Position numbers and translations under genes: made by a program
NCBI GenBank assembly: GCA_964016885.1
Contig: OZ024742.1
Coordinates: 279,744,001-279,808,000, forward strand
Reading direction: 5' to 3'
Source: Eledone cirrhosa
Taxonomy: Eukaryota
Length of the DNA stretch: 64,000 nt
Shown: one piece after another, positions 4,135-64,000 of the stretch
How the letters are laid out: every line of letters starts with the position of its first letter
Position numbering within the stretch: the first letter of the stretch is position 1
Notes under the pieces: generated by a model
Database searches by the model: none
Told to the model about the DNA's origin: nothing
Seen by the model: only the letters and a program-made list of their open reading frames with translations

Positions 4135-4366
4135 TATAATATAAAATGAAAAATCAGTGATGCATTTGAACTTAATTTATTGTGTTACAATTGTTTCGCC
4201 GGCGGACAACTCGAGACATATTCATTGTGTGGATCTGTCTGATTCTGGATCCGTAGGTTCGACGGATCCACACAATGATCGGGTCTCGAGCTGTCCGCGT
4301 GCGAAACAATTGTAACACACAATAAATTGAGTTCGGAAGCATCACTGATTTTTCGTTTTATATTAT
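4135..4366. repeat. Foldback inverted repeat (about 100-bp arms) of a pLTR-like end
   Basis: aaaatcagtgatgc...ttattgtgttacaattgtttcgc mirrored by gcgaaacaattgtaacacacaataaa...gcatcactgatttt. Confidence 0.85.
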
Positions 4367-4621
4367 ATCATACTCTGCTCTGTAAGAAAATAGAGTGTTC
4401 AACCGGCATACACCCTATAGAAGCATCTTAGCTACGATCAGACACACACACACCCACACCCACACAAACACGCACACACATACACAGCAACACACAGCAA
4501 CACACACACACACACACACACACACACACACACACGCACACACACACACACACACACACACACACACACACACACACACACACACACACACACACACACA
4601 CACATACATACACATATATAT

Positions 4622-5069
4622 ATAATAATAAGGGTTGACGGACCCAGCATATTTATCAATGCCAGCACCGGTTGTATCTCAGCGCACTCAATGGGCAATG
4701 TAAGATACATTACCAGAGTATACACATAGTTATTTGCCTCAACACAACACACGTAAAACGGGTGCCTATAAGGTTCCAGGACTCGAGTTTCTGCCGAACT
4801 AATGCAGCAGTGAGGTGTACTGCACCATCTGTCTGCATATATTATGCAACAATGCACAATCGGCTTATGCGGCTTCATCAGCGGGTATCGCCTAATCAAT
4901 AACCAATCGATCGACAGAATCCAAACACCGGCCCATCCCGGTTATGACTGTTTGTGACAACCGACACGGTAAAGCGATTAGCAACTGGCTACCGATAGGA
5001 CTCTATCTCTCAACTAGCCACTGATTTACACATTTTACGTGGGGACGAGAAGTTAAAAAGAATCAATCT
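4622..5069 (-). mobile_element. About 450-bp non-coding HHR-bearing element (retrozyme or non-autonomous PLE-like), copy 1
   Basis: Highly similar to 58060-58498; its 3' end abuts (TA)n; contains an HHR at 4776-4885. Confidence 0.75.
4776..4885 (-). ncRNA. Type I hammerhead ribozyme with enlarged stem II
   Basis: Minus strand: cccg CTGATGA a-gccg...(83 nt in total)...cggc-a GAAA ctcgag TC ctgg; copy 2 reads cggg after the cleavage site, restoring stem I in the consensus. Confidence 0.65.
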
Positions 5070-61195: not shown

Positions 61196-62125
61196 TATAT
61201 ATATATATATATATACCTTTATATATTAACATACTTTTTCTCATAGCTTCGTACTTACAAACACACACACTCTTTTACTTACATATACACACACATATCC
61301 TCTTAGCTTCGTACAGACGTATAACAACACACACACGCGCGCGTGTTTATCACGCGCACAAGAATACCTCTTTACAGAAAAACGTTTTTGTTTTTACATT
61401 TCAGGTAGACGCACTCCATCACCCACTTTTCTAAAAAAAATATATCATACACAAATGGCCATCATCAACAGGTCTCCAAGAGATGGCAACATAAAATAAC
61501 CTATATATATTTCCAGGGCTGTATCACTTTGACGTTTTTCTGAAAAAGGGGAGGCAACACTAGAGAGGAAATATATTTTTCAAGTCAAATGCATTTCATT
61601 TTTTCCTCGATAAGCAATTGGGTACGAAGTAGAGTTTTCACTCGATATGCAGTCGATCTTTCTGGCTGACTGGCGGGTGTTGATGTTACAGCAGCTAGCC
61701 AATGTATTGTAAGCTCCTGGGTACGTGCAGGCAAATTCTGTGCAATGCAGGAAAGGATTCCATATTTCACATCTGGTCAACAACTACTTAGTGACGAACG
61801 AGAGAAACAAAGTAAAAAAGACACTCATGCACACACAAGTAGGGTGGGGAAATATGTGGTTAAAACACGCATACATGGGCACATGCATACACATCCCGAG
61901 CACTGAAGCTCGAGGAAGTAACAGAAAACAAAAATACATACACATACAAAAACAAACACAGGCACAGGTACATAACCCATGCACCTGTCAGAACAAGAGA
62001 AGACACACACACACACACACACACACATATATATATATATATATATATATATATATATAAATATATATATAAACAAAATAAAATAACAGGAGGCTGGACT
62101 GGTGTAAATCCTTGAAAGGTTTATT

Positions 62126-62183
62126 ATACTATGATCATTTCAATGACCGGGTTCCATATGAATCCGGCGATATCATCAGGTAT
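62126..62183 (-). ncRNA. Type I hammerhead ribozyme
   Basis: Minus strand: atac CTGATGA tatc-gccgg..ccggt-catt GAAA tgatca TA gtat, then aataaa; palindromic TGATCA stem III. Confidence 0.75.
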
Positions 62184-64000
62184 TGGAATATAACAAAGGA
62201 ATGTGTAAATAAAAATGGGGCCGAAAAATAAGAGACAGAGACAAGGAGGACGATTGACCAACTAGCTGCCTTTACCTCGGCCAGTCGCCCTCAAAGTGGT
62301 GGCAACTGAATCTACTAATGAACATCTAGTGAGGGGGCGAAGGCTTATAATGCACTACCACCTCTCCGTCAAAGAAAAAGGGGAAGACAGAAAGGAAGAA
62401 AGAAGTCAGCGTAAGGGTCACACTACATTCATGCTAGAAAATGCCGCGAAAAAATGCTATTCCAAAGGATCTATAATGGGTGTCTGTATAGTCTAACGTG
62501 TGAACCGAAGATTGGAACGTTAAACTTATGTTGCGAGTTATAGGATGAAATTAAATTAAATTAAAAATATTAAATTGCAAAATGATAAATTGAAAAATAA
62601 ATTATTAGAAAATTAAAGGTTAAGGTAGCGAAATTTATTTAATGAATTTACGGAGAGAGTCTTATATGAACAAATTTATCTCGATAAGATATTAGGATGG
62701 AATATAGGGTAAAGATTTCGATTGCGAGTCCCAGCCCCCCCCCCCCTACAATGAGTCAGCCAGTTTCGAGTGGTATCGTCCAGCGAAAGAAATGGAAATT
62801 AATTTTTCCGAGAACTCTAGGAACGTAGCTACCTTAGGCCCCGGTATCGCTAGCGGGAACTCCACAATTTCGACAGGCCATCGTCTATACCAAATAATAT
62901 TATTAAATCACACATGAGGGGTTTATTTACGTGCCAGTAGAGGCATGATACAGCTAATAGTTATGCATAAACCTGGAGTCTATAGATATAAGTGGTGGCG
63001 TTCCCGACTGCGCGCTGGGCACTCGGAAAGTTCAGCCTTCCTTGAGTGTTCGGAAAAATAAATTTCTCCTCTTTCGGTAAACGAAATTACTCGGAGCGGG
63101 TTGCTTTGGCCCGGTCCCACCGCGCCGCCTGTTTTGGCCGCCATATTATACTTATACCTATAAACGCCAGATTTAGGCATAACTATTAGCTGTATCATGC
63201 CTCTACTGGCACGTAAATAAACCCCTCATGTGTGATTTAATAATATTCTTTTGGTATAGACGATGGGCTGTCGAAATTGTGGAGTTCCCGCTAGCGATAC
63301 CGGGGCCTAAGGTAGCTACGTTCCTAGAGTTCTCGGAAAAATTAATTTCCATTTCTTTCGCTGGACGATACCACTCGAAACTGGCTGACTCATTGTAGGG
63401 GGGGGGGGGGGGGCTGGGACGCGCAATCGAAATCTTTACCCTATATTCCATCCTAATATCTTATCGAGATAAATTTGTTCATATAAGACTCTCTCCGTAA
63501 ATTCATTAAATAAATCTCGCTAGCTTAACCTTTAATTTTGTAATAATTTATTTTTCAATTTATCATTTTGCAATTTAATATTTTTTATTTAATTTAATTT
63601 CATCCTATAACTCGCAACATAAGTTTAACGTTCCAATCTTCGGTTCACACGTTAGACTATACAGACAGCCATTATAGATCCTTTGGAATAACATTTTTTT
63701 CGCGGCATTTTCTAGCATGAATGTAGTGTGACCCTTACGCTGACTTCTTTCTTCCTTTCTGTCTTCCCCTTTTTCTTTGACGGAGAGGTGGTAGTGCATT
63801 ATAAGCCTTCGCCCGCTCACTAGATGTTCATTAGTAGATTCAGTTGCCACCACTTTGAGGGCGACTGGCCGAGGTAAAGGCAGCTAGTTGGTCAATCGTC
63901 CTCTTTGTATCTGTCTCTGATTTTTCGGCCCCATGTTTTTTTACATACTCCTTTGTTATATTCCAATACCAGATGATATCGCCGGATTCATATGGAACCC
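62149..64000. repeat. Large foldback: arms 62149-62993 and 63150-64000 (probably continues beyond the window), spacer about 155 bp
   Basis: Arms are close reverse complements; the ORF track shows mirrored ORFs at 62296(+) and 63853(-). Confidence 0.95.

Follow-up and report, generated by a model that had tools for sequence, protein, structure and literature searches.

Unequal-ended, head-to-head insertions into (TA)n tracts of Eledone cirrhosa likely link a hammerhead retrozyme to Penelope-like elements

The 64,000-nucleotide stretch of Eledone cirrhosa DNA analysed here (contig OZ024742.1, hereafter the window, numbered from its first letter) comes from a 3.0-Gb genome of which (TA)n makes up about 6%, and it holds seven foldbacks, in which an inverted 3′-end copy of an element abuts a sense copy head to head. 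In all seven the outer 3′ ends are unequal: the first lies at a fixed short site and the second 35-164 nt further out, with a surplus that corresponds to the “tail” of Penelope-like elements (PLEs). The layout is found in a coding PLE, in an older, decayed PLE, in a 311-bp hammerhead ribozyme (HHR) tandem termed R311, and in three other families termed F4, F10 and F62. These foldbacks are likely to be single Penelope-type insertions, for which both nicked strands of a (TA)n tract served as primers for reverse-transcribing the same RNA, one at each fixed start site. Mobilisation of R311 by PLE-type machinery is highly probable, and the complete model of one template, two primers and rolling-circle copying, as judged from sequence, is somewhat more probable than its negation.

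A first-pass annotation had reported six head-to-head structures, all of which were recovered by self-BLAST of the window and direct reading of the sequence; the additional foldback, at 15442-15771, is a second copy of the family at 10189 (F10). The long end had been misplaced in four cases (its true position being 4445 and not 4366, 10659 and not 10568, ~25112 and not 25040, and, beyond the window, 64224), because the earlier limits covered the mirrored part only; corrected limits are given in Table 1. Most outward ends had been described as running into (TA)n, and indeed 12 of the 14 outer ends abut such a tract; the other two are 4445, which gets there via a (CA)n run, and 18405, which adjoins a copy of a repeat that we presume to be a short interspersed nuclear element (SINE-like). 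Both termini of the coding PLE read ...G followed by TATATA, and no target-site duplication (TSD) is visible at the foldbacks, also as reported. The label “HHR-bearing” fits most families, as judged by pattern search and reading, but the family at 4139 (F4) has the 3′ half only and the old PLE at 18405 has a CTGGAGA core. Rfam returned no hammerhead among the 150 of 215 matches listed, those listed being simple repeats only, and folding of short HHR stretches gave z-scores without significance.

Across the genome, 103 fully read two-armed copies of five families (50 R311, 16 coding PLE, 6 F62, 14 F10 and 17 F4) pair a short with a long end, and none pairs two long ends. Most searches picked loci by their long end, and the fair reading of this count is that, one end being given, its partner is of the other kind. 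The exact long-end junction of R311 occurs 1006 times in the genome; the first 40 occurrences comprise 37 long+short copies, no long+long copy, one one-armed copy with (TA)n on both sides and two that were left undecided (one gap, one arm of more than 13 kb). When 16 R311 loci were picked by unit identity, blind to their ends, 13 were short+long, two were cut by gaps and one had an odd end, with no like pair among them, and none of the 100 long ends listed faces another within 30 kb. The short end of R311 lies at unit positions 209-230, most commonly 221, and the long site at 256, 35 nt apart, with one of each in 50 loci. The 38 distinct loci of the coding PLE include 16 two-armed copies, all short+long, and two with an 8-9 nt stub of the short end. 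Pairs were likewise read at 6 of 27 F62 loci (many of which extend past the fetched DNA), 14 of 29 F10 loci and 17 of 29 F4 loci, and a second coding family, encountered by chance, has the same layout at three loci (L332, L364, L307). Five long+long PLE calls obtained with loose anchors were false and disappeared when stricter anchors were used.

A family-blind scan covered 19 of 20 evenly spaced 10-kb stretches (190 kb, one satellite stretch being excluded) and counted foldbacks without inner (TA)n. Of its 27 foldbacks, 16 reach (TA)n at one end and stop 37-176 nt short of (TA)n at the other, one has both ends at (TA)n, one has a single end there and nine have neither. The 16 cases in 190 kb of background suggest that short/long foldbacks are a major source of genomic palindromes in this species. 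Tail lengths across the families are 35, 82, 91, 146 and 164 nt, and for the coding PLE, F10 and F62 the short site follows the HHR cut by 57-60 nt.

R311 is the most informative family because it cannot code. It is a non-coding tandem with a type I HHR (CTGANGA...GAAACGCGTA) in every 311-bp unit (unit fold z = -4.06), and its arms exceed one unit on both sides in 38 of 48 loci. Twenty haplotypes are represented among the plus arms of 31 informative loci, and the majority haplotype is common to both arms in 28 of these 31 loci, against 57 of 930 cross-locus pairs (6%). Moreover, 6 of 40 loci carry a variant that is absent from other loci and present in nearly all units of both arms (A217C at L344, which is also present in L357 and L363, was excluded), while the 86 sporadic variant calls in 119 kb include only two that are common to different loci. 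These haplotype data are most simply read as a one-monomer bottleneck with repeated copying after it, which would correspond to rolling-circle reverse transcription. In single arrays at L042, L342, L343 and L365, rare variants repeat every 5 or 7 units, a spacing that may reflect multimeric circles or later unequal crossover. An apparent period-3 pattern was discarded as a clustering artefact, since per-unit alignment gives homogeneous units. At L400 (97461500-97475000), a single R311 arm extends over more than 13 kb and more than 40 units, its junction not being reached. No RNA data carrying R311 were among the matches listed, and a closed 340-nt contig of the unit, present in three runs from other organisms, was set aside as evidence on circles, since a tandem DNA array gives the same.

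The junctions between R311 arms indicate how the two copies meet. The 104 inner 5′ ends are spread evenly across the unit (Kolmogorov-Smirnov p 0.29), and in 5 of 52 loci the two 5′ ends map to unit positions no more than 15 nt apart, against 5.2 by chance. Overlaps of 1-5 nt account for 28 of the 52 junctions, blunt joins for 7 and joins with inserted bases for 16, one 16-nt overlap call being left out; microhomology of 2-5 nt is found in 23 of the 35 junctions free of inserted bases. These features fit the joining of two independently truncated cDNAs, not fold-back priming.

The preference for (TA)n was measured against 200 kb of evenly spaced genome, in which (TA)4 starts within 10 nt of 2.2% of positions outside tracts and of 6.8% of all positions. 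Ends in (TA)n number 52 of 55 for the coding PLE, 28 of 31 for F62, 42 of 49 for F10 and 29 of 29 for unselected R311 ends. The enrichment expected at PLE and retrozyme termini is thus borne out, with 85-95% for the PLE, F62 and F10 against 2-7% of background and 3 of 29 for the SINE-like repeat. However, (TA)n adjacency does not distinguish PLEs, as 18 of 29 ends of the 3678..4124 family, which we take to be Helitron-like, also lie in (TA)n. Nor is it supported that the insertions help to explain the (TA)n richness of the genome, as had been suggested: the tracts pre-exist, and seven PLE/HHR families touch at least 12 of 180 background tracts, a lower bound. One-armed copies usually have (TA)n on both flanks, and at L396 a compound 26-nt TA-rich repeat runs on across the insertion in the same direction in both flanks; the tract therefore pre-existed and masks any TSD. 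Interruptions in the two flanks have the same polarity at 7 of the 9 informative loci, a number too small to be given weight, and only the single clear cases (L031, L350 and L396) are used. In F4, the long ends of 25 of 29 copies carry 3-123 nt of (CA)n ahead of (TA)n, always in the sense of the element, and the short ends never do. This microsatellite was apparently seeded by the terminal GACAC of the element and could represent microsatellite birth at a priming site.

Not all elements that enter (TA)n do so with two arms. A Neptune-like coding PLE is two-armed in 0 of 17 resolved copies, with (TA)n at 23 of 24 3′ ends, and an 844-bp HHR repeat, which closes as a non-coding tandem, is two-armed in 0 of 29, and of its 29 copies 27 have (TA)n at the 3′ end and 23 at the 5′ end. 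The latter family (4628), at first chosen as a control, proved to be an HHR element with one arm. Both are one-armed in (TA)n with similar ends (...AT followed by TATA); the Neptune-like PLE is young (3′ ends 99% alike), the 844-bp repeat has a long stem II, and the former may be the mobiliser of the latter. Opposite copies are rare in the two non-PLE controls: none of 29 Helitron-like copies is two-armed, and the 29 SINE-like copies have an opposite copy at the 5′ end in 2 and a TSD-like repeat of at least 8 nt in 15, compared with two-armed copies at 17 of 29 F4, 14 of 29 F10 and 16 of 38 PLE loci. The mechanism proposed by the first-pass annotation as common to autonomous PLEs and non-coding HHR elements is accordingly supported in part: a coding PLE and the non-coding hammerhead repeats have the two-ended signature in common, including its fixed short/long pair, but one mechanism for every PLE and HHR element is not supported. 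What marks these insertions is the two-armed, unequal-ended layout, not (TA)n, and only some of the PLE/HHR families have it.

The coding PLE carries an open reading frame (ORF) at 27875-30590 (+) with a reverse transcriptase (RT) and, C-terminally, a GIY-YIG domain, recognised by YRDD and a VIY..YIG segment, and with a frameshift near its start. It has 68 homologues, one of them a named RT domain, and no match in Pfam. It displays RWN, DKT, CNCRDRGRC, CDLC and CTH, and reading found no cysteine pair within the GIY-YIG core; marks given for the Hydra clade in the consulted text of PMC8557442 are an RWK-like motif, DKT, a CxCx5C linker, CxxC and CxH, with no CCHH. By its motifs alone, the element would thus be placed with the Hydra clade, whose trait of an HHR in the pseudo long terminal repeat (pLTR) together with insertion into (TA)n it also displays. 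Its HHR cut lies at 27590, the short site at 27650 and the long site at 27814, and 33 of 37 motifs counted have the core TTGAGAA (U3-A8), a variant described in the part of PMC4209133 consulted. The 3′ part of another Hydra-like PLE occupies 55487-57210 (HHR motif 57164-57209); its long 3′ untranslated region (UTR) contains TA/TG-rich tracts in most copies, and elements of this kind spread microsatellite-like sequence internally. F4 does not have the canonical 5′ core (CTCGAGC in 27 of 28 motifs listed) and keeps GAAAC-AATT-GTA alone; in copies L181, L188 and L367 a second, canonical-looking CTGATGA...GAAA motif lies about 1.6 kb upstream of the end. Family sequence extends upstream without a contiguous PLE protein match over at least 1.6 kb in F4 and at least 0.6 kb in F10, full units not being closed; these families may be non-autonomous or may be long 3′ UTRs. 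F62 closes as a non-coding tandem with a 1.96-kb unit and an HHR motif.

Altogether, these observations can be accommodated by a model based on the Penelope protein PAc, which, as reported in the consulted text of PMC11167929, cuts and extends both strands in vitro from two internal RNA start sites that delimit the tail, and for which a dimer is predicted. An asymmetric complex with two active sites (the dimer being taken from PMC11167929 alone) would grip one RNA at both sites; each enzyme would copy 5′-wards from its own site, and the two cDNA ends would be joined by microhomology. Abortion of the second arm would leave one-armed copies or the 8-9 nt stubs. For R311, the template would be a ribozyme-cut monomer circle read round many times, and it would follow from such a template that arrays are born at insertion, the non-coding families borrowing the PLE protein in trans. 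Taken jointly, these steps lead to a reading that we hold only tentatively: a pair of PLE proteins would grip one ribozyme-made RNA circle at two fixed sites and draw two rolling-circle cDNAs from opposite (TA)n strands, generating inverted retrozyme satellites of up to dozens of units in one step. The genome would then host two PLE modes, a two-armed one of Hydra type and a one-armed one of Neptune type, either of them exploited by non-coding hammerhead parasites of its own, and there would be hundreds of thousands of two-armed scars.

Several observations weigh against the proposed insertion model. Sporadic variants recur within 4 of 40 R311 arrays; post-insertion copying between units therefore occurs, and could also homogenise the arms. 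One source locus active per cell, combined with two RNA molecules, would match the haplotypes as well. Arm-to-arm identity in four older families is not convincingly above between-locus identity, so that “one template” relies on R311. Selection by long ends could hide short+short pairs, save in the R311 best-hit set and F62, and one short+short call was made in F10 (L103, an older copy with a SINE-like insertion). At one R311 locus (L041) an arm terminates at unit 94, and the coding PLE has no second arm at 20 of 38 loci, 14 of which have (TA)n also on the 5′ side. Lastly, the R311 short site is 131 nt from the HHR cut, tail lengths differ among families, and self-BLAST found no sequence similarity of R311, F4, F10 and F62 to the coding PLE; several proteins may therefore be involved.

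Among the alternatives, the same PLE machinery could prime on both strands but draw on two RNA molecules (one for each subunit) or on a source array's long, linear read-through transcript, in which case arrays would be copied without a rolling circle. All end data fit this account, the 5′ ends show neither pile-up nor stop at the HHR cut (10 of 104, 10 expected), and for PAc the consulted text describes uncut RNA as the main in vitro template and HHR cleavage as dispensable (PMC11167929). It is nevertheless rather unlikely: alone, it leaves the strict one-of-each rule unexplained, and linear copying predicts that a private variant should sit in one unit, whereas 6 of 40 loci have theirs in nearly all units of both arms and sporadic variants common to different loci number only two. 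Twin priming of the L1 type, in which a second primer is placed by microhomology inside the RNA and the 5′ part is inverted, also produces outward-pointing 3′ ends; its features are a variable internal priming site and non-overlapping arms. The AT run in the R311 short site could pair with the target, yet the commonest short junction (28 of 45) has one CA fewer before that run. Here the second site is fixed and not scattered, the same sequence is present in both arms of F4, F10, F62 and the PLE, and the stretch from the short to the long site holds no excess of 5′ ends (18 of 104 against 18.7 expected), which leaves twin priming barely credible.

Fold-back, either with an antisense template that primes itself, the route put forward for rotifer Penelopes in the consulted part of PMC3846280, or at replication of a one-armed insertion, is the published account of PLE palindromes and would yield head-to-head arms of one haplotype. 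It predicts palindromic junctions, however, and the chance-level coincidence of 5′ ends reported above largely refutes it for R311; as it also gives no reason for a second arm that ends at a different fixed site, we consider it very improbable. Finally, the young arrays are inverted and 100% identical, as expected from an assembly or read artefact, or if solo pLTRs were locally amplified and converted to inverted satellites, and local amplification by unequal crossover has been proposed (bioRxiv 10.64898/2026.07.22.740005, as far as consulted). But flanks differ on the two sides, two distinct fixed end sites recur at more than 100 loci, arms are diverged in old copies (70-97%), and crossover cannot bring the ends of an array to a pair of fixed sites within (TA)n, making this the least probable explanation of all.

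Inverted pLTRs, a tail at one end and a bias towards (TA)n have already been described for coding PLEs (PMC8557442, PMC3846280, in the parts consulted). Compared with the Hydra-clade endonuclease-bearing (EN+) PLEs of Craig et al. 2021 (PMC8557442), whose published tail measures 30-40 nt in the consulted text, the coding PLE tail measures 164 nt; the 35-nt tail of R311 lies within the published range and those of the other families (82-164 nt) outside it. Strict short/long pairing in every two-armed copy read and the inclusion of non-coding families also set the present elements apart from that description. The Poseidon PAc of the green anole (Frangieh et al. 2024, PMC11167929) resembles them in cutting and extending both strands, in its two internal start sites and in its AT-rich target; as far as the consulted text goes, it belongs to another clade, its start site was not seen to differ between strands in vitro, neither a pairing rule nor a product with two arms was described, and there is no trans-mobilised RNA. 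Like the non-LTR retrozymes of animals (Cervera and de la Pena 2020, PMC7229834; Li et al. 2026, in the portions consulted), R311 is made of ~300-bp non-coding tandem units with a type I HHR each, within the 150-450 bp by which retrozymes are recognised, and its U-U at the base of stem II is that of axolotl HHR_Amex2. PLEs have been proposed as mobilising partners of retrozymes, with rolling-circle copying as a hypothesis (PMC7229834; bioRxiv 10.64898/2026.07.22.740005), but inverted two-armed arrays, tails and (TA)n targets are absent from the main texts of these papers, and the preprint, as consulted, prefers post-insertion local amplification. Adineta vaga Penelopes (Arkhipova et al. 2013, PMC3846280) have, in the text consulted, head-to-head inverted pLTRs with a 31-bp tail on one and trans-mobilisation by pLTRs alone; their junctions are palindromic, attributed to antisense self-priming, with 8-10 bp TSDs, whereas here junctions are not palindromic and no TSD is readable. 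A literature search, with supplements and subscription papers outside its scope, found no account of this junction signature on a retrozyme, nor of strict pairing, shared arm haplotypes or arrays born at insertion.

The route by which PLEs insert in tandem and inverted form is named an open task in the consulted text of PMC8557442, and the mobiliser of animal retrozymes has so far been argued from co-occurrence and pLTR similarity. R311, with about 1000 insertions, young and of several haplotypes, and with two nucleotide-exact start sites, supplies evidence at the level of junctions that it is mobilised in the PLE manner. Strict short+long pairing limits how the insertion complex can be arranged, speaks against the published self-priming model in the case of R311 and implies that some satellite arrays arise at insertion.

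Table 1. Foldbacks, contrasting elements and controls in the window (coordinates in window numbering)
Feature	Coordinates	Strand	Remarks
F4 foldback	4139..4445		short arm minus, end 4139 in (TA)n; long arm plus, end 4445; HHR 3′ half only; cut-site equivalent 4314
F4, 3′ side	4442-4614		(CA)n, then (TA)n
F10 foldback	10189..10659		short arm minus (end 10189); long arm plus (end 10659)
F10 canonical type I HHR motif	10463-10511	+	
F10 canonical type I HHR motif	10288-10240	-	
Second F10 foldback, older	15442..15771		long arm minus, short arm plus; (TA)n at both ends
Decayed PLE	18405..25112		inverted short arm 18405-~19020 minus; sense copy up to ~25112
Coding PLE, long tail-bearing inverted arm	25816..26126	-	
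Coding PLE, short-ended sense arm	26126..30991	+	partial tandem, >1 unit
R311 (311-bp hammerhead tandem), long-ended arm	38535..41533	-	9.65 units; ends at unit 254-256
R311, short-ended arm	41543..45798	+	13.7 units; end at unit 213-218; every unit with an HHR motif (unit 60-90)
F62 foldback	62072..64000		short arm minus (end 62072); long arm plus, running into (TA)n, with its end at 64224 (224 nt outside the window)
Contrast: 844-bp non-coding HHR repeat	4622..5207	-	second copy 58052-58498; (TA)n-targeted, one-armed
Contrast: Neptune-like coding PLE	58541..61196	-	5′-truncated; HHR motif near 58660-58630; (TA)n both sides; one-armed
Control: Helitron-like element	3678..4124	+	hairpin and CTAG end
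Control: SINE-like repeat	18225..18413	+	ends in ATT; TSDs

The decayed PLE is interrupted by later insertions, its arms being about 70% alike, and contains small palindromes whose arms are ACTAGCAGAAAACC, together with a 53-bp minisatellite that is itself palindromic (22778-22863, 23353-23393, 23897-24140). The microsatellite-rich flanks of the R311 array (38144-38308 and 45803-45963) match each other in inverted orientation at 88%, and the array may lie inside an older TA/CA-rich foldback. A palindrome at 55165-55472 (308 bp, 90% matched) was kept outside the foldback set, having no relative among the fetched loci. Helitron-like elements with a hairpin and CTAG/GTAG ends, often directly followed by (TA)n, are found at 3678-4124 and 21418-21871, with further ends at 15411 and 37241, and a remnant C-terminus of an ORF, presumably of a long interspersed nuclear element (LINE-like), lies at 12734-13339 (-).

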